In this document: in pieces, positions 10,784 through 61,280 of the stretch | Layout: each line of letters starts with the position of its first letter | How positions within the stretch are numbered: the first letter of the stretch is position 1 | Source: Candidatus Levyibacteriota bacterium | GTDB lineage: Bacteria > Patescibacteriota > Microgenomatia > Levybacterales > UBA12049 | NCBI GenBank assembly: GCA_049519175.1 | Contig: JBEKQZ010000001.1 | Coordinates: 224,043 to 288,042 of the forward strand | Direction: 5' to 3' | Length of the DNA: 64,000 nt | Position numbers and translations under genes: made by a program | Notes under the pieces: model-generated | What the model saw: the letters and a program-made list of their open reading frames with translations, nothing else | What the model was told of the DNA's origin: nothing | Databases searched by the model: none

Positions 10784-10784
10784 T

Positions 10785-12418: not shown

Positions 12419-13011
12419 TGAATATGAACGTAACAAGAGGATATGGACTCCTTGAGGCATTCTTAGCAAAAAAAAGAGCAAAATTGGCAAACAAGTTCAT
12501 AACAGAAGGTTATAGAAGCGGCAGAATACTGGATATAGGTTGTGGTACTTATCCATACTTTTTGGAAACGACTAAGTTTAAAGAAAAATATGGAATTGAT
12601 CCGGTTCTTAATCTGAAAGCAGTTGGAGAGAAAAGCCTTAAGCTAAGCAAAGTTGCGATCGGAAACAAGAAGTTACCCTTTGAAGATAATTTTTTTAATG
12701 TTGTGACGATGCTGGCGGTTTTCGAACATATAGAAAATAATGATCTTGAGCCGATACTAAAAGAGGCTTATAGAATTCTGAAAAAAAATGGAATCTTTAT
12801 TATTACAACACCGGCGTCTTGGTCGGATAAACTGCTTCATTTTATGGCAAGGACAGGGTTAATAAGCGCGGAAGAAATACATGAACACAAACATAATCAT
12901 CGAAGAGAACGAATAGAAGATATAATAGCGAGTGGAGGATTTAATAAGAACAATATTAGAAGTGGGTTTTTTGAGCTAGGTATGAATATGTGGTTTACGG
13001 CAAAAAAATGA
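12418..13011 (+). CDS. Class I SAM-dependent methyltransferase
   Basis: ILDIGCGTYPY (motif I) and VVTMLAVFEHIEN (motif II/post I). Confidence 0.7.
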   Translation: MNMNVTRGYGLLEAFLAKKRAKLANKFITEGYRSGRILDIGCGTYPYFLETTKFKEKYGIDPVLNLKAVGEKSLKLSKVAIGNKKLPFEDNFFNVVTMLAVFEHIENNDLEPILKEAYRILKKNGIFIITTPASWSDKLLHFMARTGLISAEEIHEHKHNHRRERIEDIIASGGFNKNNIRSGFFELGMNMWFTAKK

Positions 13012-17801: not shown

Positions 17802-17805
17802 TTTT

Positions 17806-20939: not shown

Positions 20940-20942
20940 TTT

Positions 20943-22490: not shown

Positions 22491-22492
22491 CT

Positions 22493-29687: not shown

Positions 29688-30431
29688 ATGAAAAACGTCA
29701 GATTGTTATCTTTAGTTGTCCCCGCATATAAACAAGAAAAAACAATCGTTAAAGATATTCAGAGCCTTGCAAATGTTTTATCCGCTCTACCTTACAGATA
29801 TGAAGTCATCGTAGTGGTTGACGGATTTTTGGATAAAACTTTTGAGAAAGCAAAGTCAATAAAAAATAATAATATCAAAGTCGAAGGCTATAAGAAGAAT
29901 ATCGGCAAAGGATTTGCGATTAGATATGGAGTGGAAAAGGCAAAGGGAGATGTAATCGGTTTTATTGATGCCGGAATGGATATAGATCCGAATTCAATTT
30001 TGACACTCGTTAAATATATGCAGACTCATAATGCAGATATAGTTATAGGTAGTAAGCTGCACCCCGACTCGAATGTTAAATATCCTTTGGTTAGGAAAAT
30101 CCTTTCCTGGGGTTACCGAAATGTAGTTCATTTGTTGTTTGGGCTTAACGTAAGAGATACTCAAGCAGGATTAAAACTGTTCAAAAAAGAAGTGGCAAAA
30201 GAAATTTTTCCCAGACTTACCGTTAATACGTTTGCCTTTGATATAGAGACCTTGGTAATCGCCAAGAAAATTGGATTTAACAATGTGAGGGAAGCCCCCG
30301 TCAAGGTGAGTTTTAGAAGGGGAACAATTACAAATTTAAACTTTTTTAAGATTGCTCTAATAATGTTATTAGACACCGCACGTGTTTGGGTACAGTTAAA
30401 TATTTTTAATTCTTACGGTAAGAAAAAATAG
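29688..30431 (+). CDS. GT2 glycosyltransferase (DPM1-like)
   Basis: LSLVVPAYKQEKTI..VIVVVDGFLDKT..IDAGMDIDP..QAGLKLFKK. Confidence 0.75.
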   Translation: MKNVRLLSLVVPAYKQEKTIVKDIQSLANVLSALPYRYEVIVVVDGFLDKTFEKAKSIKNNNIKVEGYKKNIGKGFAIRYGVEKAKGDVIGFIDAGMDIDPNSILTLVKYMQTHNADIVIGSKLHPDSNVKYPLVRKILSWGYRNVVHLLFGLNVRDTQAGLKLFKKEVAKEIFPRLTVNTFAFDIETLVIAKKIGFNNVREAPVKVSFRRGTITNLNFFKIALIMLLDTARVWVQLNIFNSYGKKK

Positions 30432-30511: not shown

Positions 30512-31288
30512 ATGAAGACAATAATATTAAGCGGAGGATTAGGTTACAGATTAAAAGAAGAAACTGAATTTAAGCCAAAGCCGATGGTGCTTATTGGAGA
30601 CAAACCAATACTTTGGCATATTATGAAAATATATGCCCACTACGGTTTTAACGATTTTATTATTGCACTGGGATACAAGGGAGATTACATAAAACAATAT
30701 TTTTTAAATCAAAAGCAATTAATTCACGATTTTACTCTTCACACAAAATCCGGTTCCGTAAGAATTCATAAATCCGACGGTAATACTGCCGACGATTTTA
30801 AAATAACATTTGTGGATACGGGAGAGGAAACTCTTCCAGGAGAAAGAATACTCCGCTTAAAAAATTATATCCCGAAGGAAGATAAAAACTTCATGGTTAC
30901 ATATGGCGATGGGGTATCCGATGTAAACATCAAGGAGTTGGTAAAATTTCATAAAAAACAAAACACTATAGGGACCATTACCGGTGTGCATCCCCGAAGT
31001 AAGTATGGACTTTTAAAGCTTAACGAAAACAGCATAGTAGATAGCTTTATAGAGAAACCGGTGCTTAAAGAAAGAACAAACGGTGGTTTTATGATTTTCA
31101 AACGCGAGTTCTTTAAGTATGTAAATCCTAACGAATATGAACATGAAGGGCTAAAAAGATTAACAAAAGAAAAACAGCTATCGGTTTTTGTCCACGACGG
31201 CTTCTGGCATTCAATGGATACCTATTCGGATGTAGAAAACCTTAATAAATTATGGATAGAAACTAAGCCTTGGAAAGTATGGAAATAA
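30512..31288 (+). CDS. rfbF: Glucose-1-phosphate cytidylyltransferase (CDP-glucose pyrophosphorylase)
   Basis: MKTIILSGGLGYRLKEETEFKPKPMVLIGDKPILWHIMKIY is near-identical in pattern to Salmonella RfbF/DdhA (MKAVILAGGLGTRL..KPKPMVEIGGKPILWHIMK). C-term PWKVWK matches RfbF APWKTWE. Confidence 0.9.
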   Translation: MKTIILSGGLGYRLKEETEFKPKPMVLIGDKPILWHIMKIYAHYGFNDFIIALGYKGDYIKQYFLNQKQLIHDFTLHTKSGSVRIHKSDGNTADDFKITFVDTGEETLPGERILRLKNYIPKEDKNFMVTYGDGVSDVNIKELVKFHKKQNTIGTITGVHPRSKYGLLKLNENSIVDSFIEKPVLKERTNGGFMIFKREFFKYVNPNEYEHEGLKRLTKEKQLSVFVHDGFWHSMDTYSDVENLNKLWIETKPWKVWK

Positions 31289-32220
31289 AAGGAAAAAAAA
31301 TTTTAGTAACTGGGGGCACGGGGTTTATAGGCAGTCATTTGGTTCAAGAGTTGGTAGATCTTAAAGCAAAGGTATCTGTTATTGATATAAAAATTGAACC
31401 AAAATCATACTTTGTGCAAAATAAATTAAAAGGAATTTGCAAATTTAAGTTCGTTGATATTCGTAATAAAAAAGCCATTGAAAGCTTTTTCTCTAAAAAC
31501 AAAATTGATTATATCTTTCATCTGGCCGCAGAGCCGATTGTTGAAAAGGCTTTTCTTAATCCGATTAATGCCTTTACAACCAATATTATGGGGACAGTAA
31601 ATCTGTTGGAAATAGTAAGAAAGAATAAAAGAATAAAAGGGATTATTGTTGCTTCTTCGGACAAAGCCTACGGTAAAACAAAATCAGCTTACACGGAAGA
31701 GTCTCCTTTAAGAGGAGATCATCCCTATGACGTGTCAAAATCCAGCATGGATCTTATTTGCCAAACGTATTACAAAACTTATGGTATTCCAATTGTGATT
31801 ACGCGTTTTGGTAATGTTTATGGTGAAGGAGATCCTAATTTGTCAAGAATTATTCCGGGAATCTTTGACGCAATTATAAAGAACAAAACGCTAAAAATAA
31901 GAAGTGACGGAACTTATGTCAGAGACTATTTATATGTTAAAGATGTTGTAGACGGATATATCTTTTTATTGAAAAATTTTAATAAAGCTGTGGGCGAAGC
32001 GTTTAACTTTTCTTCAAAAGATTCATTATCTGTTTTAGAGCTCATCAAAAAAGCGGAAAAGATACTAAATACTAAAATTAAATATAAGATTCTAAACAAT
32101 GCCCAAAATGAAATTCCCTATCAACACCTTAATGATGCAAAGATAAAAAAGTTAGGTTGGAAAAATCATTATAATTTGGAGAATTCCTTAGCTAATATAT
32201 TGGATTGGTACAAAAACTAA
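31279..32220 (+). CDS. rfbG: CDP-glucose 4,6-dehydratase-like NAD-dependent dehydratase (extended SDR)
   Basis: VTGGTGFIGSH. FHLAAEPIVEKAFLNPINAFTTNIMGTVNLLE aligns with RfbG FHMAAQPLVRLSYEQPIETYSTNVMGTVHLLE. SSDKAYG. YDVSK (YxxxK). RFGNVYGEGD. It is shorter than canonical RfbG. ATG at 31279. The ORF-track start at 31270 is TTG. Confidence 0.65.
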   Translation: MEIKGKKILVTGGTGFIGSHLVQELVDLKAKVSVIDIKIEPKSYFVQNKLKGICKFKFVDIRNKKAIESFFSKNKIDYIFHLAAEPIVEKAFLNPINAFTTNIMGTVNLLEIVRKNKRIKGIIVASSDKAYGKTKSAYTEESPLRGDHPYDVSKSSMDLICQTYYKTYGIPIVITRFGNVYGEGDPNLSRIIPGIFDAIIKNKTLKIRSDGTYVRDYLYVKDVVDGYIFLLKNFNKAVGEAFNFSSKDSLSVLELIKKAEKILNTKIKYKILNNAQNEIPYQHLNDAKIKKLGWKNHYNLENSLANILDWYKN

Positions 32221-32222
32221 TT

Positions 32223-33725
32223 ATGAAAAGAAAAATACCTACAGTAATGGTTTCTCAACATCCGGACAATGCCAGTAAACCTTCTTGGCACACCGACGCA
32301 TACATTCGAGATCACGATGAAGTAAAAGAATGTTACTATGCTTTTTCAAAATTGGGAGTTTCCGAATACAAATGGGATTGGGAAGGAAAATTTGTTGATG
32401 AATCTGTTTTTGAAAGATTAATTAGTGAATATCCCACTTTTTTTCATAAAAACCAGTTAGGTAGAGATAAGTTTCTAACTTTCCGCTTGCCGGACTATAG
32501 AGTTAATACGGAATTTAGATTGGGAAGAGCTTTGATGGGAATATTAAGTGCAGCGGGGCTTGCTGAGGAAATAGGATTTTTCTCTCCTCCGATATTTGAA
32601 GCAATATTGTCCATGACCCAATCGGCGGAAGAAATGATTGGAATTCAAGAAGCATTTCTGGAGTTGGCAAGCCTTAAGAATCCTCTCTACAAAAATAGTT
32701 TTATGAAGAATATTAATATTATCCCACTTTTTGAGGATATAAATAGAATTATGGATTCCGCTACAATTTTAGAGAAATATATTCATTTGCATAAAAGTAA
32801 ATTTGGAGTATTCCCTTCGTACATGAGGCCGTATTTAGCTAGATCTGATTCCGCTTTAAGCTCCGGCTTGGTACCTTCTGTTTTGGCAATTAAGGTTGCT
32901 TTATCTAAATACGCAAAGTTTACCAAAGACACAGGTATTGAAACATTCCCGATTATTGGCGCCGGATCTCTCCCTTTTCGTGGCGGATCAACGCCTTATT
33001 CAGTTAAGCAATTCATAAAAGAATATAGTGGAATAAAAACCATGTTGGTTCAAAGTGCTTTTCAATATGATTTTCCGGAGAAAGATGTCTTAAGTGCGAT
33101 AAAAGCAATCGAGAAGGCCTTACCTAAAAGTAAGGCTCTAATAGTCAGCAGTACGGATGAAAGAAAAATAAGGAGAGTCATTAATGATTTCGAGCCTTTT
33201 TACCAGAAAACCGTTAAAAAGATCGGGTCTACTGTGTACAGTATTGCAATTTATATGCCCGCAAGAAGAGAAAGGCTAAAACATACAGGACTGCTTAAGT
33301 ATCCAAGGTTGGTACAGGGAGTGAAAGTTCCCAGAGCAATAAACTTTACGGCCTCTCTTTACTCAATCGGTATTCCGCCTGAGTTTATTGGCGTAGGAAG
33401 AGGAATAAGAGCAGCTAAAAAAAATGGAAATCTATCGATTGTTGAAAAAACATATTTTAATTTCCATAATGACCTAGAGAAAGCGGGAGGATATTTGAAT
33501 AAAAAAGTACTCTCAGTTTTGTCTAAAAAATCGCAGGGATGGAAAGAAATACAGGAGGATGTAAGGATAATAGAGGGTTATTTAGGCAAAAAATTTGAGC
33601 CGAAAACACCGGAAGAGAAAGCTCATCAAGTTTTTAGTGAAAGTATTTATGAAAGGTTTACGCAGGGAATTGAAATGACAGACCTGATAGAAGAAGCGGC
33701 TGTTCTTAGAAGAAGTTTGGGCTAG
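32223..33725 (+). CDS. ppcA: Archaeal-type phosphoenolpyruvate carboxylase (PEPcase_2 family)
   Basis: N-term MKRKIPTVMVSQHPDNASKPSW ... EVKECYYAFSKLGVSEYKWDWEGKFVDE matches the hallmark archaeal PEPC N-terminus (..IPRTMSTQHPDN.. / ..WD.EGK.VD..). About 500 aa. ATG at 32223. The ORF-track start at 32205 is TTG. Confidence 0.65.
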   Translation: MKRKIPTVMVSQHPDNASKPSWHTDAYIRDHDEVKECYYAFSKLGVSEYKWDWEGKFVDESVFERLISEYPTFFHKNQLGRDKFLTFRLPDYRVNTEFRLGRALMGILSAAGLAEEIGFFSPPIFEAILSMTQSAEEMIGIQEAFLELASLKNPLYKNSFMKNINIIPLFEDINRIMDSATILEKYIHLHKSKFGVFPSYMRPYLARSDSALSSGLVPSVLAIKVALSKYAKFTKDTGIETFPIIGAGSLPFRGGSTPYSVKQFIKEYSGIKTMLVQSAFQYDFPEKDVLSAIKAIEKALPKSKALIVSSTDERKIRRVINDFEPFYQKTVKKIGSTVYSIAIYMPARRERLKHTGLLKYPRLVQGVKVPRAINFTASLYSIGIPPEFIGVGRGIRAAKKNGNLSIVEKTYFNFHNDLEKAGGYLNKKVLSVLSKKSQGWKEIQEDVRIIEGYLGKKFEPKTPEEKAHQVFSESIYERFTQGIEMTDLIEEAAVLRRSLG

Positions 33726-33801
33726 ATATGGATTTGATGGAATCTTTAGGAAGGTATATGATTGGCGTATTAAAAATGAATAGTAAATAAGAATTTGTAT
33801 A

Positions 33802-34653
33802 ATGAGACCAAGAAATTTAAAAACTAAAATTTTTCTCGATAGCGGAAATCCTTCCGATACCAAAGCAACACTAAAGCTTCTCGGATTTTTAGATGGACAA
33901 ACAACGAATCCTTCTTTAATAGCAAAAAGTTCGAAGGCAATAGAAAGAATCGAAAAAGGAGAAAAATTTTCAGCAGAAGAAATTTACGATTTTTACAAAA
34001 AAACAGCAGAAGAAATTTCAAACCAGATTCCAAATGGCTCCGTATCGGTTGAAGTATATGCAGATTCAAATACTAAAGCGGAAGAAATGTTAGATACCGG
34101 TAAGAAGTTTTTCTCGTGGATTCCTAATGCTCACATAAAACTTCCTATAACAAGAGAAGGACTTAAGGCAGCGAAGGAAATGATAAGTATGGGAATGAGG
34201 GTTAATATGACTCTTTGTTTTAATCAAGAGCAGGCGGCTGCAGTATATGATGCAACAAGAAGAGCTACTGCGGGTCAGGTCTTTATTTCTCCATTTGTCG
34301 GAAGACTTGATGATATTAATCAAAACGGAATAAGTCTTATTTCCAACATACTGGAAATGTATAGAGAAGGAGACGGACACGTAGAAGTTCTAGCGGCCAG
34401 CATTAGAAGTATAGACCATTTTATGGCATGTTTGAATTTAGGATGCGACATAATCACTGCTCCTTTTCCCGTGCTTAAAGAATGGGCAGATAAAGGTTTT
34501 CAGACTGCAGGCTTTGATTATAAAGTTGATTTGAAAGACATTCCTTATAAAAATATTAAGATGGAGAATTGGGAAAATATAAATATCGAAAATGAATTGA
34601 CAAATAAGGGAATCGAAAAATTCTGCGCCGATTGGACTGCCCTCATTGTCTAA
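33802..34653 (+). CDS. Transaldolase / fructose-6-phosphate aldolase family protein (short TalC/FSA type with insertion)
   Basis: KIFLDSGNPSD..GFLDGQTTNPSLI and the Schiff-base lysine context HIKLPITREGLKAAKEM. Confidence 0.75.
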   Translation: MRPRNLKTKIFLDSGNPSDTKATLKLLGFLDGQTTNPSLIAKSSKAIERIEKGEKFSAEEIYDFYKKTAEEISNQIPNGSVSVEVYADSNTKAEEMLDTGKKFFSWIPNAHIKLPITREGLKAAKEMISMGMRVNMTLCFNQEQAAAVYDATRRATAGQVFISPFVGRLDDINQNGISLISNILEMYREGDGHVEVLAASIRSIDHFMACLNLGCDIITAPFPVLKEWADKGFQTAGFDYKVDLKDIPYKNIKMENWENINIENELTNKGIEKFCADWTALIV

Positions 34654-34654
34654 C

Positions 34655-35737
34655 ATGAAAATTAAATCAAGAATTAAAGACTTCGAAGTAATATTTGCCC
34701 GAGACTTTGATTTTGTAAATGAGTTTCTTCGATTAGAACATTATGTTGTTATTGTGGGTTCAAATGCGCATTCTATTTACAAAAAAAAGATTTTCAGTAG
34801 ATTTCCCAAAGATAAAGTAATAGTAATCGAGCTAGGTGAAAAAAACAAAACTATTGGAACGGTTATCAAAGTGTATGAAAAGCTCTTAGAGCAAACGGCA
34901 AAGAAAAATTTAACAATCATTTCATTTGGTGGAGGAATAAATCAGGACGTTGTTGGATTTATTGCCTCAACTTTGTATAGGGGAGTCAATTGGATTTATG
35001 TTCCAACCACGCTGTTAGCAATGGCAGATAGCGCCATCGGACTTAAAACTTCGCTTAATTTCAGGCATTATAAGAACGTTCTGGGAACTTTTTATCCTCC
35101 TTCGAAAATTATTATCAATGTCGATTTCTTAAAAACTCTTCCTAAGTTAAATTATTTTAGCGGAATAGGGGAAATTATTAAATTTTATTTAATGAAAAAG
35201 AACGCCATTGCGGATTTGGATAACACACTAAAGAAAATAGAAAAATTAAAAAGCGGGAAGAATAGGCAAGATATTCTTAATATCATCGAGGAAAGCATGA
35301 AAATTAAACTAAGCTACATGGAAGGCGACGAATTTGATACGGGAAGAAGAAATCTTTTAAATTACGGACATGAATTTGGACATGCGCTTGAGCCGGCATC
35401 TGCATTTAATATTCCCCACGGAGTAGCTATTTTAATTGGCATAATATTTGCAAACGTCGTTTCTTATAAGAGAAAGATGATTAGTAAGCAAGTTTATGAG
35501 GATTTAAATAGGCGCTTGTTGGTACCAAACATTCCCCGTGACGTTGTAAATATCAAAAAAAGATATTTTGACAAAGACACAATTTTAGAAAATATGAAAA
35601 AAGATAAAAAAAGAATTGGTAATGGTTTGGTACTTGTTCTTCCGCGAAAAGATTTCTCTCTTATTAAAGTTAATGATTTGAGCATTGACGAATATACCTC
35701 AAGTTTGATAGAGTTGAGAAAAATAATAGGAGTATAG
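34655..35737 (+). CDS. 3-dehydroquinate synthase-like sugar-phosphate cyclase (DHQS superfamily)
   Basis: GGGINQDVVGFIAST, VPTTLLAMADSAIGLKT, and the metal-binding motifs NYGHEFGHALE and HGVAILIG. 361 aa. ATG at 34655. The ORF-track start at 34646 is TTG. Confidence 0.75.
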   Translation: MKIKSRIKDFEVIFARDFDFVNEFLRLEHYVVIVGSNAHSIYKKKIFSRFPKDKVIVIELGEKNKTIGTVIKVYEKLLEQTAKKNLTIISFGGGINQDVVGFIASTLYRGVNWIYVPTTLLAMADSAIGLKTSLNFRHYKNVLGTFYPPSKIIINVDFLKTLPKLNYFSGIGEIIKFYLMKKNAIADLDNTLKKIEKLKSGKNRQDILNIIEESMKIKLSYMEGDEFDTGRRNLLNYGHEFGHALEPASAFNIPHGVAILIGIIFANVVSYKRKMISKQVYEDLNRRLLVPNIPRDVVNIKKRYFDKDTILENMKKDKKRIGNGLVLVLPRKDFSLIKVNDLSIDEYTSSLIELRKIIGV

Positions 35738-35744
35738 TAAAAAT

Positions 35745-36527
35745 ATGAATTTATTAGAATTAAAAATGGTTGAACTCCTGAAAAACTTAAGGGATAAGTT
35801 TGGAGTGACAGCCCTTAAGGCTGAATTTGAAGCAGAGGCCTCCCGGGTTAACGAAGTAATGCGCCTAAAAGACGTTGCCGATAAGGCGGATTTGGATTTA
35901 GTGATTAAAATCGGCGGAGGAGAAGCAGTTACGGATATGTTTGAGGCGCAACATATCGGAGTGGACCTTCTTATCGCCCCCATGGTTGAAACCCCTTATG
36001 CGCTGCGTAAGTATTTAGAAGCGGTAGAGAAATATTTCTCCAAAGATTTAAGAGCGAAAATGCATTTTGGGATAAACATTGAAACAGAATTGGCTTGCCT
36101 AAAATTCCCGGAGATGCTTTTGGAGAAAAAGGTCGATTTAATCGATACGATTACCGTTGGAAGAGTTGATCTCTCCGGTTCAATCGGTCTTCCGAGAGAT
36201 CAAATTAACAGCGCTGAAGTTTATATACTTGCTGAAACTGTTTTTACTCTGGCGCGAGCAAAAAAGTTCAGAACTGCAATGGGTGGCGGTATCGCTGTTG
36301 AGGCAATACCTTTTATAAAAAAACTCGCGGCAAAAAAACTTTTAGATCGCTTTGAAACCAGAAAAATTGTATTCGAAGTTCCCGATAATTTTACAAACGT
36401 AGAGAAAGGAATTATTCAAGCTAATATATTTGAATTAATGTGGCTGGAAAATAAAAGAAATTACTACGAAAGAATTTTCCGGGAAGACGAAAAAAGAATA
36501 GAAATGTTAAAAACGAGAATTAAGTAG
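35745..36527 (+). CDS. HpcH/HpaI (CitE-like) class II aldolase/lyase family protein
   Basis: IAPMVETPYAL (PM[IV]ET motif) and TVGRVDLSGSIG (G..DLs.s.G motif) fit the HpcH/HpaI/CitE fold. The family call is less certain than for its neighbours. Confidence 0.5.
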   Translation: MNLLELKMVELLKNLRDKFGVTALKAEFEAEASRVNEVMRLKDVADKADLDLVIKIGGGEAVTDMFEAQHIGVDLLIAPMVETPYALRKYLEAVEKYFSKDLRAKMHFGINIETELACLKFPEMLLEKKVDLIDTITVGRVDLSGSIGLPRDQINSAEVYILAETVFTLARAKKFRTAMGGGIAVEAIPFIKKLAAKKLLDRFETRKIVFEVPDNFTNVEKGIIQANIFELMWLENKRNYYERIFREDEKRIEMLKTRIK

Positions 36528-36535
36528 CGAAATAA

Positions 36536-38356
36536 ATGATAAAGTTAAGCGACTACGTATGTAATTTCTTTTCCGCAAAAGGCATAACCCATGCTTTCGT
36601 ATTGGGGGGAGGAGGCAACATGCACCTCATAGACTCCGTTGATAAAAGTAAACTCGAATATGTGTGTAACCTACATGAACAAGCAGCTTCTTATGCCGCG
36701 GAAGGATATGCTAGGGTAACAGGAAAACCGGGTCTTGTTATTATCACAACCGGTCCGGGAGGAACAAATACAATGTCGGGAGTTTTAGGCTGTTGGCAGG
36801 ATTCAATTCCGATGTTTGTTATTTCCGGACAAATCGCCAGGAGATTTATGGGCGCGGGGACAAAAATGGGAGTAAGGCAGTTGGGGGTCCAAGAGATGAA
36901 TATCGTTGACGTGGCAAAGCCAATGGTTAAATATGCTTCGGTAGTAATGGACCCATTAGATATTAGATATGAACTGGAAAAAGCCTGGCATTTGTCTACA
37001 ACCGGCAGACAGGGGCCGGTTTGGCTAGATATTCCACTTGATGTGCAAAGCGCGATGATTGATGAAAAGAAATTAAAAAAGTTTAATCCTAAGGAAATTA
37101 CCCCCGATTATATTACTAACAAAAAAGCAATAGAAAAATTGGTAAAACAGACGCTCAAAAAGATTTCAGAGTCCCAAAGGCCCGTCTTATACGCGGGAAA
37201 CGGAATTAGGCTGAGTGGTGCTTATGCTGATTTCTTAAAACTAATAAACCTCTTAAAAATTCCGGTTTTAACCAGTTATGTTGGATACGATATGGTGCCA
37301 TCGAACCATCCTTATTTTTTTGGCAGAGCTCATGCCATGGGACAAAGAGCCGGGAATTTAATTATTCAAAACAGTGACTTATTGTTTAACATCGGTGCAA
37401 GATTGGATGTTCTCACGATGGGTTATGAAAAAGAAAAATTTGCCAGGGCAGCTTATAAAATTATGGTAGATATTGATAAACACGAAATAGAAAAGCCCAC
37501 GTTGTATGTCGACTTAGGTATAAATACCGACGCAAAGTTATTTATCCAAGAAATGATTAGGCAACTTAAAAAGAAACCGCTTAGATTAAATATTAAGTCC
37601 TGGTTGGATTATGGACGAAGGATGAATAAGAAATATCCAAATGTCCCGAAAGAACTATGGGAAGGAAAAAAATATGTTAACCCGTATTGCTTTATCGAAG
37701 AAAGCTGTAAGCAATTTAAGCCCAATGAAATAATTGTTCTGGCTAATGGGGTAAACGTTTTAAACTGTTCGTATCAAGCTTTTATCGTAAAAAAGGGACA
37801 ACGTATAATTCTTAATCTTGGATCAGCTCCCATTGGGTATGGGCTACCTGCGGCGATAGGCGTAAGTTTTGCCTTCAATAATAAAAAAAGGATAATTTGC
37901 ATGGAAGGCGACGGCAGTATTCAGGTGAACATTCAAGAATTACAAACAGTAAGGCACTACAATCTTCCGATTAAAATATTTATACACAGTAACGGAGGAT
38001 ACTTATCCAATCGGAACACCCAGAAAAATTTGTTTGGAGGAAGATATGTAGCATCGGGAACAGACAGCCATATTACTTCTCCCGATTTTGTAAAAGTAGG
38101 AAAAGCTTATGGAATTAAATCAATAAGAATAAATAACCACAAAGAGATGAAAGCAAAAATAAAGTATGTCCTGAATTATCCGGGACCGATTATTTGTGAT
38201 ATTAATGCGCTTAAAGATATGAGTTTAACGCCTAAGTTGTTAACAAAAAAGAGGGCCGATGGAAGTTTTTATTCGCCTGCACTTGAGGATATGTGGCCTT
38301 TCTTGAGTAAGGAAGAATTGAAGGAGGAGATGTTCATTCCATTGCTAGATGAATAA
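36536..38356 (+). CDS. Thiamine-diphosphate-dependent enzyme, acetolactate synthase large-subunit-like (YerE-like candidate)
   Basis: N-terminal Pyr domain: ITHAFVLGGGGNMHLID..ASYAAEGYARVTGKPGLVIITTGPGGTN. C-terminal ThDP motif: GSAPIGYGLPAAIG..CMEGDGSIQVNIQELQT..HSNGGY. 606 aa. Confidence 0.85.
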   Translation: MIKLSDYVCNFFSAKGITHAFVLGGGGNMHLIDSVDKSKLEYVCNLHEQAASYAAEGYARVTGKPGLVIITTGPGGTNTMSGVLGCWQDSIPMFVISGQIARRFMGAGTKMGVRQLGVQEMNIVDVAKPMVKYASVVMDPLDIRYELEKAWHLSTTGRQGPVWLDIPLDVQSAMIDEKKLKKFNPKEITPDYITNKKAIEKLVKQTLKKISESQRPVLYAGNGIRLSGAYADFLKLINLLKIPVLTSYVGYDMVPSNHPYFFGRAHAMGQRAGNLIIQNSDLLFNIGARLDVLTMGYEKEKFARAAYKIMVDIDKHEIEKPTLYVDLGINTDAKLFIQEMIRQLKKKPLRLNIKSWLDYGRRMNKKYPNVPKELWEGKKYVNPYCFIEESCKQFKPNEIIVLANGVNVLNCSYQAFIVKKGQRIILNLGSAPIGYGLPAAIGVSFAFNNKKRIICMEGDGSIQVNIQELQTVRHYNLPIKIFIHSNGGYLSNRNTQKNLFGGRYVASGTDSHITSPDFVKVGKAYGIKSIRINNHKEMKAKIKYVLNYPGPIICDINALKDMSLTPKLLTKKRADGSFYSPALEDMWPFLSKEELKEEMFIPLLDE

Positions 38357-38360
38357 TAGA

Positions 38361-39227
38361 ATGAATATACTGATAACAGGAGCTAACGGATTTCTAGGTA
38401 AGCATCTCAAAGAAAATCTTGGCAATAAATACACTCTCTTTACCCCGTCCCACAAAGAACTAGATCTTCTTGATGAAAATGCAGTCGAGAAATTTTTTAA
38501 GACACATAAGATAGACGTAGTTATTCATACCGCTTTAGTAGGTGGAAGCAGAAAAGAGGAAGAGACGGAGAGCGCTTTAGAGCAAAACTTAAGGATGTTT
38601 TTTAATATCGTGAGGAACAAAAAACATTTTAAGAAAATGATTCATTGTGGCTCCGGAGCGGAATATGATAAGCGTTTTCCAATAGCGAAAGTTAAAGAAG
38701 AAGATTTCGATAAAAGAGTTCCGGCAGATGAATATGGGTTTGCCAAGTATCTCTGTTCAAAATATATCGAAAACAGCGAGGATATAGTTTGTTTAAGAAT
38801 TTTTGCGTTATTTGGTAAAGGTGAAGATTACAGATACCGTTTTATTTCTAACGCGATGTGCAGGAACATTTTTGGCTTACCGATAACGATGAGACAGAAT
38901 GTTTACTTTGATTATATTTACATCAAAGACATAGTTAGAATAGTAGAATATTTTATAGGGCATAAGGCAAAACATAAATTTTACAACGCCGGGACAGGGA
39001 AGAGAGTGAGCTTAAAAACAATCGCCAAGAAAATCAATGAAATAGCAGATATTAAGTCAAAAGTGCTTATTAAAAAAACAGGATTAAATAAAGAATATTC
39101 GTGTAACAACAAAAGACTGGTCAAGGAACTCGGCAATTTTAAGTTCACGGATTTTAATGATTATATGAATGAGCTCTATTTATGGTATAAAGAGAATAAG
39201 AAATTAATTAAGAAGGATTTATTATGA
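38361..39227 (+). CDS. NAD(P)-dependent sugar epimerase/reductase (extended SDR, RmlD/GDP-fucose-synthase-like)
   Basis: MNILITGANGFLGKHL and YGFAKYLCSKY (YxxxK). The ORF track starts at 38349 (also ATG). Confidence 0.7.
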   Translation: MNILITGANGFLGKHLKENLGNKYTLFTPSHKELDLLDENAVEKFFKTHKIDVVIHTALVGGSRKEEETESALEQNLRMFFNIVRNKKHFKKMIHCGSGAEYDKRFPIAKVKEEDFDKRVPADEYGFAKYLCSKYIENSEDIVCLRIFALFGKGEDYRYRFISNAMCRNIFGLPITMRQNVYFDYIYIKDIVRIVEYFIGHKAKHKFYNAGTGKRVSLKTIAKKINEIADIKSKVLIKKTGLNKEYSCNNKRLVKELGNFKFTDFNDYMNELYLWYKENKKLIKKDLL

Positions 39228-39892
39228 AAAGAAAGACGGTTTTATTAACGGGGGCATCCAGGGGAATGGGAGCCGCAATTTATAAAAAGTTAAAAAAAGA
39301 TTACAACGTACTTACTCCGACAAGAAAGGAATTGGATTTATCGAATAACGCCTCTATAGACACATTTATTAAAAAGAATAAAAATACAAAAGTAGATATT
39401 ATTATTAACAACGCAGGAATTAATTTTCCACAATGGATTGAAGAGATGTCGGATGAAAATATCGAAAATACGGTGCAAACTAATTTAGTTGCCCCAATCA
39501 GGCTAATTAGAGGATTTGTTGGTAACATGAAAGAGAATCATTGGGGAAGGATTATAAACATAAGCTCGATGTTTGGAATTGTCGCAAGAGGTAAGCAGGT
39601 GCTCTACTCGGCAACAAAACACGGCATTAACGGCGTGACTAAAGCGTTAGCGCTTGAGCTGGCAAAAGACAATATCTTAGTTAACTCCGTTTGTCCCGGT
39701 TTCACAAAAACAGATATGGTTCTTAAAAAGAACAATCCGGAAAAAATTGCACTGCTTGAAAAAGACATTCCTTTGGGGAGACTGGCCGAACCTTCCGAAA
39801 TTGCAAATCTTGTTAAATTTCTGATTTCCGATGAGAGCACATATATTACTGGCTCCTGTATTCTTATCGATGGAGGGTTTACATCTAGATAA
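39224..39892 (+). CDS. Classical SDR oxidoreductase (FabG-like ketoreductase)
   Basis: VLLTGASRGMGAAI, NNAGI and YSATKHGINGVTKALALELA (catalytic YxxxK). Confidence 0.8.
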   Translation: MKRKTVLLTGASRGMGAAIYKKLKKDYNVLTPTRKELDLSNNASIDTFIKKNKNTKVDIIINNAGINFPQWIEEMSDENIENTVQTNLVAPIRLIRGFVGNMKENHWGRIINISSMFGIVARGKQVLYSATKHGINGVTKALALELAKDNILVNSVCPGFTKTDMVLKKNNPEKIALLEKDIPLGRLAEPSEIANLVKFLISDESTYITGSCILIDGGFTSR

Positions 39893-39897
39893 ATTTT

Positions 39898-40668
39898 ATG
39901 GCAATAAAAAATAATACTAGGAAAGTACCGTTATTGAGTTTATCTTTTAACGTTTATAACGAAGCAGCAAATGTGGAGAGAACATATAAGGAATGTAAAA
40001 ATATCCTTATTAAAGCAAAGATTCCTTATGAAATAATTCTGGTTGAAGGGGGTTCTAAAGACAATTCATGGAAAGTCTTACAAGCCTTGGCTAAAAAGAA
40101 TAAAGACTGCAGAGTTTTTCAGACGAAAATGGAACCAGGAAGAAAAGTAAATAAAGGAATGAGGGAAGCGCGGGGGAAATATTTTGGATATATGTGTTCG
40201 GACGGGCAGGACAACCCGAATGTTTTACCAAAATTCATAAAACTACTGGAAAGTAATAAAGCGGATTTCGTAAAAGCAAGAAGAGTTAACAGGATTTTTT
40301 GGGAGAGAAAAGTAATTTCAAGAGTGTACAATAGATTATCTGATTTACTTTTTGGGTTAGGTCTTAGTGATATTAATATGCATCCCAAAGTATTCAGGAG
40401 GGAACTGGTTAAAGGAATCAACCTTATTTCTGTTGGTGAAAGCATAGATTTAGAAGTTGTGTTACGGGCCCAGAAAAAAGGATATAGGATAGTCGAAATA
40501 CCGGTAAGGGAGAGAGTTAGAGGTGGAGGAAAATCAAGCGTCAATCCCTCAGTAGCACTGCATATGCTTACGGACATGCTTTCGTACAAATGGGGAAGGA
40601 AAAGCAAAATGTTAAATAGAAACATTAGCGGGGAAAAGCCTTCAAGGAAAGGATCTATAGCTAGCTAA
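39898..40668 (+). CDS. GT2-like glycosyltransferase (divergent; VEGGSKDNS in place of DDGS)
   Basis: LSLSFNVYNEAANV..IILVEGGSKDNS..CSDGQDNP. It has the general DPM1-like GT2 layout but atypical signature residues. Confidence 0.55.
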   Translation: MAIKNNTRKVPLLSLSFNVYNEAANVERTYKECKNILIKAKIPYEIILVEGGSKDNSWKVLQALAKKNKDCRVFQTKMEPGRKVNKGMREARGKYFGYMCSDGQDNPNVLPKFIKLLESNKADFVKARRVNRIFWERKVISRVYNRLSDLLFGLGLSDINMHPKVFRRELVKGINLISVGESIDLEVVLRAQKKGYRIVEIPVRERVRGGGKSSVNPSVALHMLTDMLSYKWGRKSKMLNRNISGEKPSRKGSIAS

Positions 40669-40677
40669 TTTTAGAAT

Positions 40678-41634
40678 ATGAAGAATAATCCGATCTATAA
40701 TACGATAAAATTAAAAGTTTTTAATAGAGGTTCTGTGGCGATATATCCAATAGTTTTAAAAAATCTTATGATAGATAAAGTTCGAACACTATTTTTATTA
40801 ATTCTAGTTAAAACTATTCGTTCCCGTTTTCTCGTAAAAACAATACGGGAGATTGACATTGATAAGCAGTCTATTTTGCTACGGCTTGAGAATGGGACAT
40901 CGTTTTTTCTTCCTACAGATAAGATTGACTCTTTAAATGGACTGCTGAGCGGAAAATTCGAAGAATCGGAAACCAGCCGCATGATTAAATATATTAAAAA
41001 GGGAGATGTAGTTTTAGATATCGGAGCAAATTATGGATTTTATACTGTTTTATTTTCGAAGTGGGTTGGTCAAGAAGGCAGGGTGCACGCTTTTGAACCC
41101 TTGCCATGGGCGATAACTCTGCTGGAGAAAAATTTATTGCTTAATAAAGCAACAGAAAACACTATTGTTAATAAATTTGGGTTGGGGGATAAAAAAAACA
41201 CAGCCGTAATATATAAATATGCTTGGTGTGATTCGGGATGGAGTTCTATGGAAAAACATGGTTGGATACCAACCAGCAATTCAAGATGTAAAATCATTAC
41301 GCTTGACGCTTACGTTAAAGAAAAGAAAATAAATAAGGTAGATTTCATAAAATGCGATATCGAAGGCGGGGAGCTTCCTGTATTTAAAGGGGCTCGTGCT
41401 ACATTAGCGAAATTTTCTCCTGTGATAATCTTCGAAGTTCTAAAGGCGTACGAAAAAGATTTTAACTATAAACCGCACGAGCTATATGATTATTTAACTT
41501 CATTAAATTATGACATATATAACGCGAGAGGAGATAAATTACGTTTAATTAAAAGTAATGAAAGTCATAGTATGTGGGGGTATTATTTAGCGATTCCACA
41601 TAAACATAAAAATACATTCAGCAAACATGAGTAA
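40678..41634 (+). CDS. FkbM-family SAM-dependent methyltransferase with N-terminal extension
   Basis: VLDIGANYGFYTV..VHAFEP..FIKCDIEGGELPVFKGA is typical of the FkbM (Methyltransf_21) domain. Confidence 0.75.
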   Translation: MKNNPIYNTIKLKVFNRGSVAIYPIVLKNLMIDKVRTLFLLILVKTIRSRFLVKTIREIDIDKQSILLRLENGTSFFLPTDKIDSLNGLLSGKFEESETSRMIKYIKKGDVVLDIGANYGFYTVLFSKWVGQEGRVHAFEPLPWAITLLEKNLLLNKATENTIVNKFGLGDKKNTAVIYKYAWCDSGWSSMEKHGWIPTSNSRCKIITLDAYVKEKKINKVDFIKCDIEGGELPVFKGARATLAKFSPVIIFEVLKAYEKDFNYKPHELYDYLTSLNYDIYNARGDKLRLIKSNESHSMWGYYLAIPHKHKNTFSKHE

Positions 41635-43678
41635 GAAAATATCTTCAAGAATAAAAATGCCTAGAAGAATCTTACTCTTTCTAATTTCTACATCATTTAT
41701 CCTGTTTGTCCTCTCTTTAGGCTATTTCCTTTTCGTAAATAGTGATCAGACAAATAACACACCTTACTACAAAGCGTCCGGTGCGCAAAACACTAATCTC
41801 ACGATAATTACACAAAAAGAATCGTGGTCAAAACAAAATCCTCAAAACTTGACTGAGCTATTTGCAAAAAAAACGATTGTAGGAACTTTTGTTGCGCAAG
41901 CCGATAACTTGGGGATTATCGAAATTCCTTTTGATACACATAACAGAAGTATCGATGATAAAGTCATTTTCCGCATAAAGGCAAACGGAGAAAAGAATTG
42001 GTATTTTCAAAGCGTCTACAATGCCGGTCAATTCCAAACAGATGTTCCTTTCCCTTTTGGTATTCCTGTAATCAAGAATTCTAGAAATAATAGGTATACC
42101 TTTGAAATCGAGTCGCTGGATGGAAGACCGAATAACTCAATCTCCTTAAGTAAAGCCAGTCCCTATTTCTTCAGTAAATACAAATTTTCTAAGGCAGAAC
42201 TGACCAGAAATCCTTTAACGTTGATTCAATTCATTGTTGTTAAAGCAATTAATCAGTTACCGCTTCTTACAGGTTACGAAATTGTTATCCTAGCCCTTTT
42301 TATACTTGCTCCCTTTTTACTCTATTTTGTTTTAATAGACTCTATAAGGAGGTTTAAGAAGTGGGTTGAAGCTACTATTCATTTAATTTCCGCGGCCAAG
42401 ATTAAAACATATCTGTCGCGATTGAAAAGGGTAAATTATAATTTGAGATACGCATTGGATAGAAAAGATAAGATAAGACTTTGCTGTTCGATAATTAGCG
42501 TTGGTTTGTTCTCCTCAGTGGCTTTTCATTATTTTCAAGGAGCGTATTATGGGCAAGGCTTTCCTCGGAATACATTTATTCCTAACTGGTTTTTTGGTGA
42601 TTTTTTTGCCGTTTTTGAACAATGGAGAAACTATCAATTTAACGGGATAGGGTTTGGTTTGTCTTATTTTCCGGGGACATATCTATTTATGGATTTGATG
42701 ACAAAATTATTTAATGCATACGTTGCGGTTCTGATAATGCTTATTTCTTTTACAGTCTTTCTATTTGCCTATACCTATAAAAATGTCAAAATTAATAAAA
42801 TCCTGGAATCTCTACGGAATGCTTTTATTATTTCCCTAATGTCTTATCCTTTTCTCTTTGCATTTCAAACTGCCAATCTTGAAATAATTACTTTTATAGC
42901 TGTCTGTCTGTTCTTTATCTTTTACAAAAAACATAAAACACTTAGTGTACTAGCTCTAGCATATGCCATTTCGATGAAACTTTTCCCCGGAGTTTTTATC
43001 ATCTTGTTATTGTTGGAAAAAAGATTTAAAGACATATTCTTAACTTGTGTATTCACTGTTTTCTTTACAATTTTACCTCTGCTTATTTTTGACGGAGGAT
43101 TCAACAAGGGCATCGGAAACTATATAAATAATTTTAAAGGAAGCCAACAACTATATTCCAACTTAATGATTCTAGGCGAGTCGGGGAATCATTATGGTCA
43201 TAGTCTATTAAATGGTTTTAGAGCTCTGTTTCCTTGGGTATTTCCTTCATCAATAGAGCCTATTCTATTTTCCTATATAATTTTTATTTCAATCATTACA
43301 TTGGCTATTATTGGTTATCTTTTCTTCTTTGAAAAAACATTCTGGAAAAGGGTAGCCTGTTTAGTGATGATGATGAACCTATTTCCTTTCACTTCTACAG
43401 ACTACAAGTTACTTTATATTTTTTTACCCTTGTTTTTTCTGATAAATCATTTAAAAAAAAGTAAGTATGATGCTATTTTTATCATCCTTTTCTCTTTGTT
43501 ATTGATTCCTAAGGATTACTTTTATTTTAATAATAACGCTTTTTCTAATCTTAATGTTGTTGCTAATCCAATTATTATGTCAACAATATTATTGTTAATC
43601 ATTTTCTTAGGGATTAAACAGAGCTTAGGTAAGGTAAGAAATACAGTCAATAATAAATTATTTAGTAAAATAGCGTAA
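41627..43678 (+). CDS. Membrane protein: signal-anchor + novel conserved extracytoplasmic domain + GT87/DUF2029-like polytopic GT-C-like domain
   Basis: N-dom: DNLGIIEIPFDTHNRSIDDKVIFRIK..NWYFQSVYNAGQFQTDVPFPFGIPVI..FEIESLDGRPNNSISL. C-dom: AYAISMKLFPGVFIILLLLEKRFKD..LPLLIFDGGFN. It is the tandem paralog of the 43684 gene. Confidence 0.5.
   Translation: MSKKISSRIKMPRRILLFLISTSFILFVLSLGYFLFVNSDQTNNTPYYKASGAQNTNLTIITQKESWSKQNPQNLTELFAKKTIVGTFVAQADNLGIIEIPFDTHNRSIDDKVIFRIKANGEKNWYFQSVYNAGQFQTDVPFPFGIPVIKNSRNNRYTFEIESLDGRPNNSISLSKASPYFFSKYKFSKAELTRNPLTLIQFIVVKAINQLPLLTGYEIVILALFILAPFLLYFVLIDSIRRFKKWVEATIHLISAAKIKTYLSRLKRVNYNLRYALDRKDKIRLCCSIISVGLFSSVAFHYFQGAYYGQGFPRNTFIPNWFFGDFFAVFEQWRNYQFNGIGFGLSYFPGTYLFMDLMTKLFNAYVAVLIMLISFTVFLFAYTYKNVKINKILESLRNAFIISLMSYPFLFAFQTANLEIITFIAVCLFFIFYKKHKTLSVLALAYAISMKLFPGVFIILLLLEKRFKDIFLTCVFTVFFTILPLLIFDGGFNKGIGNYINNFKGSQQLYSNLMILGESGNHYGHSLLNGFRALFPWVFPSSIEPILFSYIIFISIITLAIIGYLFFFEKTFWKRVACLVMMMNLFPFTSTDYKLLYIFLPLFFLINHLKKSKYDAIFIILFSLLLIPKDYFYFNNNAFSNLNVVANPIIMSTILLLIIFLGIKQSLGKVRNTVNNKLFSKIA
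42961..43092 (+). repeat. About 132-nt tract nearly identical (1 mismatch) to 45012-45143 in the tandem paralog (gene-conversion tract)
   Basis: By direct comparison, atatgccatttcgatgaaacttttccccggagtttttatcat[c/t]ttgttattgttggaaaaaagatttaaagacatattcttaacttgtgtattcactgttttctttacaattttacctctgcttatttttga is shared. The flanks diverge. Confidence 0.7.
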
Positions 43679-43683
43679 GGTAT

Positions 43684-61240: not shown

Positions 61241-61280
61241 CATATCTGGAAATATCTGGTAATATCTGGAAGTATATGGA
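61241..61280 (+). repeat. Four tandem copies of a 10-bp unit (cATATCTGGa / aATATCTGGt / aATATCTGGa / agTATATGGa) between the truncated GT4 and the Fic gene
   Basis: Directly visible. The Fic ATG (61276) lies within the fourth, degenerate copy. Confidence 0.7.

Follow-up and report, generated by a model that had tools for sequence, protein, structure and literature searches.

A DHQS-like enzyme of the TIGR04425 clade in a putative branched CDP-sugar operon of a Levyibacteriota bacterium, and its possible role in making the side chain

Sugars with an acyl-derived carbon branch are made by a family of related bacterial gene clusters. The clusters for yersiniose (YerE/YerF), erwiniose (ErwE/F/I/J) and caryophyllose share a 4-ketosugar derived from CDP-glucose, a YerE-like thiamine diphosphate (ThDP) carboligase, a reductase and a pyruvate aldolase. 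According to the parts of Steitz et al. 2022 considered here, long gamma-hydroxy-2-oxoacids are the donors for the YerE-like enzymes of the erwiniose, caryophyllose and 'gastriose' clusters, and the clusters encode a pyruvate aldolase (the BphI-type ErwI, or MMAR_2331 of the 'aldolase/citrate lyase family') together with a reductase; MMAR_2332 is given there as the ThDP enzyme of the caryophyllose cluster, and ErwE is described as refusing pyruvate (PMC9306805). The side chain of caryophyllose is a 1,3,4,5-tetrahydroxyhexyl group with a terminal methyl (PMC5706390). In the same parts of that study the scheme contains no enzyme resembling 3-dehydroquinate synthase (DHQS), no short-chain dehydrogenase/reductase (SDR), no HAD phosphatase, no phosphoenolpyruvate (PEP) carboxylase and no transaldolase, and it leaves the source of the deoxy-aldehyde for a C6 branch open (PMC9306805). 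Here we describe a stretch of 64,000 nucleotides (the window) from a Candidatus Levyibacteriota bacterium (contig JBEKQZ010000001.1, positions 224,043 to 288,042) in which a DHQS-like gene lies among genes of just this kind. We propose, with a confidence a little above even, that the operon around it is a cluster for a CDP-sugar with an acyl branch at C4, that the genes for PEP carboxylase, transaldolase, DHQS-like protein and HpcH-like aldolase would form its side-chain arm, and that the DHQS-like enzyme and an SDR would strip the phosphate from the side-chain precursor.

All genes of the window lie on the + strand. Those that enter the argument are as follows.

30512..31288, + strand: sugar-1-phosphate cytidylyltransferase, DdhA/RfbF-like (TIGR02623 275 bits, cut-off 300; NTP_transferase 77.5)
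31270..32220, + strand: CDP-hexose 4,6-dehydratase-like SDR, DdhB-like (TIGR02622 204.9 bits, cut-off 278; Epimerase 186)
32223..33725, + strand: PEP carboxylase, archaeal-type (PEPcase_2 419.9 bits; TIGR02751 459.4 bits)
33802..34653, + strand: small-type transaldolase (TAL_FSA 176.5 bits)
34646..35737, + strand: DHQS-like NAD+/metal enzyme of the TIGR04425 clade (DHQ_synthase and DHQS_C domains)
35745..36527, + strand: divergent HpcH/HpaI-fold class II aldolase (HpcH_HpaI, PF03328, 30.0 bits)
36536..38356, + strand: YerE/JanthE-like ThDP carboligase (three TPP domains)
38349..39227, + strand: RmlD/GDP-fucose-synthase-like reductase or epimerase (Epimerase 98 bits; RmlD_sub_bind 56 bits)
39224..39892, + strand: classical SDR, FabG-like (adh_short_C2 157 bits)

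The original prediction for this stretch had singled out four adjacent genes, for a PEP carboxylase, a transaldolase-family enzyme, a DHQS-like cyclase and an HpcH-type aldolase, and had suggested that together they feed a carbasugar or an unusual ulosonic-acid building block. The four genes are real: profile searches recover them at these coordinates, and the ENA gene calls on the source contig, a metagenome contig of 580 kb (ERZ27250144 k141_64433) that contains the window without differences, are identical. Their order is found again in related contigs of the candidate phyla radiation (CPR) whose DHQS-like proteins are 67-83% identical to that of the window, and the adjacency of the four is therefore not a matter of chance. 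The junctions of the operon are overlaps or gaps of 3-77 bp, and a scan of 29-46 kb for promoters and terminators gave nothing better than shuffled sequence, so that we read 30512-45732 as one operon. The aldolase, ThDP and reductase genes form a contiguous trio (35745-36527, 36536-38356 and 38349-39227) that is kept across loci.

For comparison we assembled about 120 loci, 39 from genomes by a scan with the DHQS-like protein (L002-L040) and 80 from metagenomes by seeding with the aldolase family. A set of seven genes recurs, namely cytidylyltransferase, 4,6-dehydratase, ThDP enzyme, reductase, SDR, DHQS-like protein and HpcH-like aldolase, and it is usually joined by a DegT-family RfbH/DdhC protein (E1 3-dehydrase, 723 bits). 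Its hosts include CPR bacteria, Sulfuricurvum, Lentisphaerae, Geobacteraceae, Anaeromyxobacter, Chlorobi, Bacteroidota, Actinobacteria and Firmicutes, among the last the cultured Effusibacillus consociatus. Homologues of the cytidylyltransferase adjoin the cassette in many phyla, the DdhB-like dehydratase co-occurs with it across loci, the RmlD-like reductase is kept beside the ThDP gene in most loci, and the SDR directly adjoins the DHQS-like gene in 37 of the 41 metagenome loci. One locus (L057) has an ErwI/ErwJ-like pair in addition. A search with an actinobacterial aldolase gave no Mycobacterium protein among the 120 matches listed. The conserved partners of the DHQS-like and aldolase genes are thus the CDP-glucose enzymes, the ThDP carboligase, the reductase and the SDR, and not PEP carboxylase and transaldolase. 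The nearby cytidylyltransferase to which the original prediction had pointed is indeed there (30512-31288); it is of the glucose-1-phosphate type (TIGR02623) and not a CMP-ulosonate synthetase.

What the DHQS-like protein might do in such a cassette is suggested by what takes its place. In Carboxydothermus pertinax the cassette consists of cytidylyltransferase, dehydratase, E1, ThDP enzyme, HpcH-like aldolase, reductase and a family 2 glycosyltransferase (GT2), and a HAD-IIA hydrolase replaces the SDR and the DHQS-like protein. A HAD_2 gene adjoins the aldolase or the ThDP gene in six loci first counted as having neither, and also in L084. The HAD proteins belong to two unrelated subfamilies, and the replacement has therefore occurred at least twice. 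Of the cassettes whose flanks extend at least 2.5 kb past the core, 30 have SDR and DHQS-like genes, 7 a HAD gene and 0 both as separate genes; when near-duplicates are collapsed the counts are 23, 4 and 0 (P = 6e-4 for the lack of overlap). Carboxydothermus (HAD type) and Effusibacillus (DHQS type) have cassette aldolases that resemble the actinobacterial query to the same degree (70% each). Together with the adjacency of the SDR, the simplest reading of this exchange is that the phosphate of the aldolase product has to be removed, either by a HAD phosphatase or by the DHQS-like enzyme and the SDR. The exchange and the conserved partners thus point away from a carbasugar or ulosonic-acid monomer as the final product, and it is likely that the pathway makes the acyl donor of a branched CDP-sugar. 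As a separate observation, one HAD-type cassette (L084, 6781-8061) has a radical-SAM gene between two tandem HpcH-like genes and the HAD_2 gene.

Fusion proteins were searched for among 1.8 billion representatives, and two were found that share the signature residues of the clade. In the first (P0372; L129 1714-3471) the DHQS-like protein is fused to HAD_2, in a cassette ordered reductase, SDR, fusion, HpcH-like aldolase. Its HAD motif IV reads ENS, compared with GDS or ED in the HAD proteins of the cassettes, a difference that may or may not be of consequence. The second (P0420; L130 5395-7458) joins a DHQS-like protein to a D-2-hydroxyacid dehydrogenase and stands behind an SDR. The surrounding locus (L130 2551-11578) encodes NeuB, the SDR, P0420, a GFO/MocA protein, a methyltransferase, a SIS isomerase, HpcH fragments and a CTP_transf_3 protein of KdsB/NeuA type, so that here the SDR and DHQS-like module runs without a ThDP enzyme. 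By analogy the layout looks like that of the 3-deoxy-D-manno-octulosonate (KDO) pathway, with the SDR and the DHQS-like protein where the KdsC phosphatase would be, and the locus may make a CMP-activated deoxy-ulosonic acid. Since a CMP-transferase and a 2-hydroxyacid dehydrogenase need a 2-oxo or ulosonic acid, this locus argues for an acyclic product of the module.

The DHQS-like protein itself falls closest to TIGR04425, which NCBIfam names 'AroB-related putative sugar phosphate phospholyase (cyclizing)'. It scores 379.9 bits on this model (cut-off 400), 120 bits above the next family, and 259.8 bits on the aroB equivalog TIGR01357, which is under the cut-off of 305. Orthologues from the cassettes reach 462, 407, 403 and 397 bits on TIGR04425, and with 254-271 bits all of them fail the aroB model. 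It might be thought that the gene is simply the housekeeping aroB of a shikimate pathway, since the DHQS active site is conserved and some sources label relatives of the protein '3-dehydroquinate synthase'. We consider this extremely improbable: apart from the scores, 64 kb of glycan genes surround it, profile searches found no shikimate gene within the window, its constant neighbours across phyla are the SDR, the ThDP enzyme and the aldolase, and true AroBs are at most 37% identical to it, compared with 41-50% within the clade. The role outside primary metabolism that had been predicted for this gene is in agreement with these results. A tblastn search of plasmids with the DHQS-like protein returned true aroB genes only.

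To classify the active site we aligned the protein with MAFFT to the DHQS of A. nidulans, using a sequence verified as 100% identical to 1dqs. All 14 active-site residues of the reference (R130, D146, K152, N162, E194, K197, K250, R264, L267, N268, H271, H275, H287 and K356 in A. nidulans numbering) are kept unchanged by the window protein, by 16 orthologues from the cassettes and by true AroBs. Presumably this fingerprint includes the carboxylate and phosphate ligands of 3-deoxy-D-arabino-heptulosonate 7-phosphate (DAHP), and K250 and R264 are the residues that we take to be its carboxylate ligands. Judged by these residues the pocket is of the DAHP type and not of the sedoheptulose-7-phosphate or glucose-6-phosphate type, so that a free 3-deoxy-2-ulosonate 7-phosphate is the expected substrate. 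The nearest solved relatives are all DHQS, with match scores in the PDB of 154 bits for DHQS, 112 for BtrC, a DOIS (2-deoxy-scyllo-inosose synthase), 106 for ValA and 82 for DDGS. Of the assignments that the original prediction had left side by side, the DAHP-type pocket thus holds and the sedoheptulose-7-phosphate cyclase does not: that identity, like DOIS, is ruled out by a DHQS residue at every fingerprint position, where those cyclases presumably differ, and by the lower scores of ValA, DDGS and BtrC. Another candidate, in which the enzyme would act first on erythrose-4-phosphate and give a 4-deoxytetrose, is less likely, the presumed carboxylate ligands of DAHP being invariant. Relative to AroB the clade has fixed substitutions of its own (G118Q, G151L/S, Q169P, A193G, V253Y, V254M, R259F, E260D, L263R and L286P), several of which adjoin K250 and R264. 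We take the protein to be a putative phosphate-eliminating enzyme, which would act on a DAHP-like 3-deoxy-2-ulosonate 7-phosphate. A literature search found no publication on TIGR04425, nor on DHQS in lipooligosaccharide or caryophyllose clusters, nor a table of the DHQS residues.

The HpcH-like protein matches its family profile weakly (30.0 bits on PF03328 against a cut-off of 25), and its fold is clear. The AlphaFold model has a pLDDT of 94, and the top Foldseek matches are SbnG, HpaI, YfaU and HpcH, with probability 1.0 and TM scores of 0.58-0.62 to the TIM barrels 4b5w, 7et9, 2vws and 2v5j. The invariant residues E113 and D142 align with the metal-ligand motifs 'QVE' and 'GPADL' of HpaI/YfaU in the family profile (Glu149/Asp175 of HpaI). 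Identity to class II aldolases is 14-18%, and the equivalent of the catalytic Arg70 is not identifiable by sequence, as that region is not reliably aligned; the C-terminus is long and helical (residues 219-259). An identity as CitE or malyl-CoA lyase is not favoured, because these rank below pyruvate aldolases in both comparisons: the CoA-ester lyase RipC is 26th in Foldseek, and malyl-CoA lyase follows nine aldolases in the profile search (E = 0.58). In resembling pyruvate aldolases the protein is what had been predicted, and it keeps the two metal ligands. The enzyme probably condenses pyruvate or oxaloacetate with a phosphorylated aldose. Class II pyruvate aldolases such as HpaI, HpcH and YfaU, as well as macrophomate synthase, have an oxaloacetate decarboxylase side activity, which is a precedent for forming the pyruvate enolate from oxaloacetate and would give PEP carboxylase a role.

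The family is not always used in this way. In two Geobacteraceae loci (L018 and L024) an HMGL-type aldolase stands in place of the HpcH-like one; this protein (L018 7597-9192, and L024) resembles HMGL/4-hydroxy-2-oxovalerate aldolases, has about 530 residues and carries a C-terminal extension of about 270 residues with no Pfam match. A tblastn search of plasmids found three HpcH-like genes, in other contexts. On a megaplasmid of Novosphingobium humi (NZ_CP103869.1; L046 12037-14807) an HpcH-like gene (41% identical) is grouped with genes for a cytidylyltransferase and a 4,6-dehydratase-like protein, and the aldolase there may have another role with CDP-sugars. In Ilyobacter the gene sits among aconitase and isocitrate-dehydrogenase genes. 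From these two contexts we conclude that the aldolase family is not confined to the branched-sugar pathway.

For the ThDP enzyme the best match in the PDB is 8rph (409 bits over residues 2-599), with 223 bits to acetolactate synthases and 216 bits to PpYerE (5ahk). This structure is that of JanthE, a characterised YerE-like carboligase (PMC12188165). In the alignment the ThDP motif reads GDG in the window protein and the unusual CDG in JanthE. We infer that the enzyme decarboxylates a 2-oxoacid and adds the remainder to C4 of a CDP-4-ketosugar. The RmlD-like reductase is a candidate side-chain ketoreductase of the YerF type. The FabG-like SDR has the TGxxxGxG, NNAG and S...YxxxK motifs and, from its position in the cassettes, would be the ketoreductase partner of the DHQS-like enzyme.

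PEP carboxylase and transaldolase together are a special feature of a CPR sub-lineage. The carboxylase is a full-score archaeal-type enzyme (459.4 bits on TIGR02751 against a cut-off of 146, residues 11-506 on model positions 1-506), with 3odm as its closest PDB match (163 bits). A phosphonate (PEP mutase) pathway, which was considered because of the PEP/pyruvate-superfamily proteins, was set aside on this identification. The transaldolase has its top PDB matches in the transaldolases of B. subtilis, Thermus and Thermoplasma, and its Schiff-base lysine aligns with those of 3r8r and 9ui2; its best NCBIfam equivalog, fsa_talC_mipB, gives 139 bits against a cut-off of 246, and its activity may be that of a transaldolase or of a fructose-6-phosphate aldolase. 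PEP carboxylase is found in the same position in six further CPR loci (L041-L044, L052 and L053), where the order cytidylyltransferase, dehydratase, PEP carboxylase, transaldolase, DHQS-like protein, HpcH-like aldolase, ThDP enzyme, reductase, SDR is kept down to 67% identity of the DHQS-like protein. The two genes are therefore a lineage-specific addition within a CPR sub-lineage and not a one-off. Hence the co-localisation that had been predicted holds within this sub-lineage, where both genes accompany the DHQS-aldolase pair, and fails beyond it: none of the 39 genome loci has PEP carboxylase, and the four genes are not the conserved unit.

It might be possible that the two are central-metabolism genes that came into a glycan operon by chance and have no part in the pathway. 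Both look like standard members of their families, and PEP carboxylase is absent from all non-CPR cassettes and even from L002, a close relative among the Levybacteria with 85% identity of the DHQS-like protein. Yet the junctions between dehydratase and DHQS-like gene are tight and the order has been kept through considerable divergence. Moreover, the transaldolase, which among the 39 genome loci occurs in three CPR loci only, adjoins the aldolase in differently ordered CPR cassettes (L002, L003 and L005) and in an organism of 49% GC (L055). We thus regard a chance association as quite improbable. Beside this stands an observation on L055 itself, where genes for a class I KDPG/KHG aldolase (9087-9896) and the transaldolase (10816-11673) lie on either side of the HpcH-like gene, so that two distinct pyruvate aldolases and a transaldolase lie together at 9087-11673.

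With the parts encoded at 30512-39892, which would make a nucleotide-activated deoxyhexose with an acyl branch at C4, the following pathway can be drawn up. The transaldolase would supply erythrose-4-phosphate and PEP carboxylase would supply oxaloacetate, which the metal-dependent HpcH-fold aldolase might decarboxylate to the pyruvate enolate; alternatively, the aldolase might take pyruvate directly. Addition to the phosphorylated aldose would give a DAHP-like 3-deoxy-hept-2-ulosonate 7-phosphate. On this the DHQS-like enzyme would carry out the first half of DHQS chemistry, with a transient oxidation by NAD+, beta-elimination of the phosphate and re-reduction, and the SDR would reduce the resulting 6-keto group to yield 3,7-dideoxy-heptulosonic acid. 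The ThDP enzyme would decarboxylate this acid and add the C6 unit to the 4-keto group of a CDP-4-keto-6-deoxyhexose that the cytidylyltransferase and the 4,6-dehydratase would provide, and the RmlD-like reductase would reduce the new ketone of the side chain. This would yield a sugar like caryophyllose whose polyhydroxy-hexyl branch ends in a methyl group; a GT2 would probably load it onto polyprenyl phosphate, from which GT-C transferases would take it. Relatives of the HAD type would hydrolyse the phosphate instead, and their branch would have CH2OH at its end. It counts for this pathway that decarboxylated 3,7-dideoxyheptulosonate would yield exactly the side chain of caryophyllose. The pathway also gives the transaldolase a task and supports the original prediction in its idea of oxaloacetate as the source of the pyruvate enolate.

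Several points weigh against such an open-chain role. The work of Knowles and Bartlett is said to have shown that authentic DHQS intermediates cyclise readily or spontaneously; with the catalytic residues intact, release of an open chain is therefore not the default expectation, and the NCBI name of TIGR04425 assumes cyclisation as well. The cytidylyltransferase, the dehydratase and the TIGR04425 match of the window all score under their curated cut-offs. In the lineage of the window the SDR and the DHQS-like gene are separated, and the E1 3-dehydrase (RfbH) is absent from the window, though present in most non-CPR cassettes, so that the acceptor here would keep its 3-OH. The fusion P0372 is the sole case seen in which a DHQS-like and a HAD domain coexist, and the two are thus not strictly alternative. 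Finally, the Novosphingobium cluster adjoins a Wza-type exporter and a PMT_2 gene, and neither a ThDP nor a DHQS-like gene occurs within 14 kb of it.

The most serious alternative follows from the first of these points. The DHQS-like enzyme might close the aldolase product to a ring, giving dehydroquinate or an epimer, which the SDR might reduce to a quinate-like cyclitol carboxylate used as a separate unit of the glycan, and the ThDP enzyme might make a short branch of the yersiniose type; this corresponds to the carbasugar of the original prediction. All 14 catalytic and binding residues of DHQS and the nearest solved relatives, all of them DHQS, suit this scheme, and an adjacent SDR fits the reduction of a ring ketone equally well. 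It is harder to reconcile with the composition of the loci. No conserved ligase, acyltransferase or nucleotidyltransferase able to attach a cyclitol acid was seen in the cassette loci, the HAD swap in otherwise identical cassettes would imply chemically unrelated products, and a YerE enzyme that uses pyruvate needs no aldolase, yet the aldolase is always there. In L130, furthermore, the module is tied to a transferase of the CMP-ulosonate type, which needs an open or pyranose ulosonic acid, and near K250 and R264 the clade has substitutions of its own. We therefore consider this scheme unlikely, while giving it real weight.

A second alternative keeps the same enzymes and changes their order. 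The phosphate might be removed after coupling, the DHQS-like enzyme acting on the side chain of the CDP-sugar, where it would either only eliminate or cyclise C6' onto the C1' ketone to form a cyclohexane branch. The gene set would be the same, co-occurrence does not fix the order of steps, and an earlier reduction of C1' would explain why no ring is formed. Against this, K250 and R264, the carboxylate ligands as we assume, are invariant, and ThDP coupling loses the carboxylate; in addition, the module of L130 runs without a ThDP enzyme. Removal after coupling is in our view very unlikely. True cyclisation as such, whether its substrate were the uncoupled DAHP-like acid or the side chain once the ThDP enzyme has attached it, we judge rather unlikely. 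Should it nevertheless take place, Levybacteria-like CPR bacteria and the cassette carriers among at least 8 other phyla would put a carbocyclic unit, quinate-like or cyclohexane-branched, on their surface glycans, and would make the carbocycle by a shikimate-independent route from PEP/oxaloacetate and erythrose-4-phosphate. A further variant, in which CDP is eliminated from an aldolase adduct on the nucleotide sugar to give a bradyrhizose-like bicycle, was dropped, as the product would no longer be activated.

Returning to the proposed C4-branched CDP-sugar, the remaining genes of the operon and the gene directly before it offer candidates for its transfer and modification.

29688..30431, + strand: GT2, polyprenyl-phosphate sugar synthase-like, PpgS/AglJ/DPM-like (Glycos_transf_2 73.7 bits)
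39898..40668, + strand: second GT2 (Glycos_transf_2 77.5 bits)
40678..41634, + strand: FkbM-type methyltransferase (Methyltransf_21 87.6 bits)
41627..45732, + strand: two GT87-like polytopic GT-C glycosyltransferases (PF09594 37 and 42 bits)

The first GT2, whose top NCBIfam matches are PpgS and AglJ (all under cut-off), is a candidate for loading the finished sugar onto the lipid carrier, and the GT87-like pair are candidate transferases that would use a polyprenyl-phosphate-linked donor. The FkbM-type enzyme might possibly O-methylate the sugar. Homologues of the second GT2 adjoin the cassette in L005, L009, L013, L026, L027 and L049-L053, and GT87-like genes flank it in L005, L007, L018, L032, L040, L063, L067, L086 and L088. 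At cassettes that have no GT87-like gene, a polytopic membrane protein of about 760-820 residues with no Pfam match recurs (L013 13177-15477, with homologues in L019, L021, L023, L026 and L040), which is perhaps a GT-C-type transferase, as yet unclassified, that serves the branched sugar.

The annotated reading frames of the window all belong to glycan assembly (GT2, GT4, two flippase-like proteins, methyltransferases, an acyltransferase and polytopic GT-C-type proteins), and no tRNA genes were found in its 64 kb. The closest relatives of its proteins are in Levybacteria, Roizmanbacteria, Gottesmanbacteria and Patescibacteria, that is, in CPR bacteria of the Microgenomates type. There are PMT_2-like genes at 12990-25412 (about 8 consecutive) and 50262-52067, YfhO genes at 4811-7156, 8513-10783 and 45742-49005, a further GT87-like gene at 48995-50278, at least 12 GT2 genes, and flippase-like genes at 746-2200 and 28288-29622. 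So unusual a number of GT-C-type transferases suggests that this CPR bacterium uses polyprenyl-phosphate sugars for glycosylation outside the cytoplasm on a large scale. Reading frames with no Pfam match lie at 19452-20939 (495 aa), 53613-54791 (392 aa) and 57299-59461 (720 aa). Towards the end of the window a 190-aa frame with the N-terminal Glyco_transf_4 domain alone (60667-61239) is followed by a Fic/DOC gene with a DeoR-type helix-turn-helix (61276-62253) and a complete GT4 gene (62258-63379); perhaps the Fic gene was inserted into a truncated glycosyltransferase or next to one. GC skew and AT skew are both strongly positive at 30-42 kb, where the soluble enzymes are encoded, and negative from about 42 kb, where the membrane-protein genes lie. 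The switch is probably an effect of coding composition and not a replication signal.

If the proposed role of the DHQS-like enzyme is correct, TIGR04425 would gain a function; this clade is widespread, with thousands of members in CPR bacteria, Proteobacteria, Bacteroidota, Chlorobi, Firmicutes and Actinobacteria, and has so far been named only hypothetically. The active site of DHQS would then be seen to have been reused outside aromatic biosynthesis. Possibly the SDR and the DHQS-like enzyme act as a general module that first eliminates phosphate and then reduces, turning ulosonate phosphates into omega-deoxy acids. As such it would explain the origin of the methyl-terminated polyhydroxy side chains of caryophyllose-type sugars. 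The end of the branch could then be predicted from the genes, as a methyl where DHQS-like protein and SDR are present and a hydroxymethyl where a HAD phosphatase is found instead. It would further mean that a CPR bacterium with a minimal metabolism devotes a PEP carboxylase and a transaldolase of its own to a surface sugar. Long-chain 2-oxoacid donors and the YerE-like enzymes that match them might be of interest for biocatalysis.

Compared with the systems described so far, the locus is at its core a YerE-type branched-sugar cluster, which is known, and the SDR and DHQS-like module is new in that the published YerE-type scheme, in the parts considered here, does not describe it. An exchange of HpcH-type for HMGL/BphI-type aldolases occurs both in the published clusters, as the same parts present them (PMC9306805), and here in L018 and L024. 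The window differs from those clusters in having no E1 3-dehydrase and in its CPR host, and within this lineage a dedicated PEP carboxylase and transaldolase appear to belong to the branched-sugar operon. With AroB (TIGR01357; 1dqs) the DHQS-like protein shares the fold, the domains, the 14 residues and, presumably, NAD+ and a metal; unlike AroB it belongs to the separate TIGR04425 clade, is encoded in a glycan operon, has an SDR as its partner and can be replaced by a HAD phosphatase. The sedoheptulose-7-phosphate cyclases and DOIS belong to the same superfamily and occur in secondary-metabolite or glycan contexts. The KDO pathway (KdsD, KdsA, KdsC, KdsB) likewise joins a C3 unit to a phosphorylated aldose, giving a 3-deoxy-2-ulosonate phosphate from which the phosphate is then removed, and the HAD-type cassettes and L130 follow its layout. 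In contrast to that pathway, with its PEP-dependent KdsA (or DAHP synthase), the window has a class II aldolase for pyruvate or oxaloacetate, the loss of phosphate would be eliminative and reductive, and the acid would be consumed by a ThDP enzyme instead of being activated with CMP.

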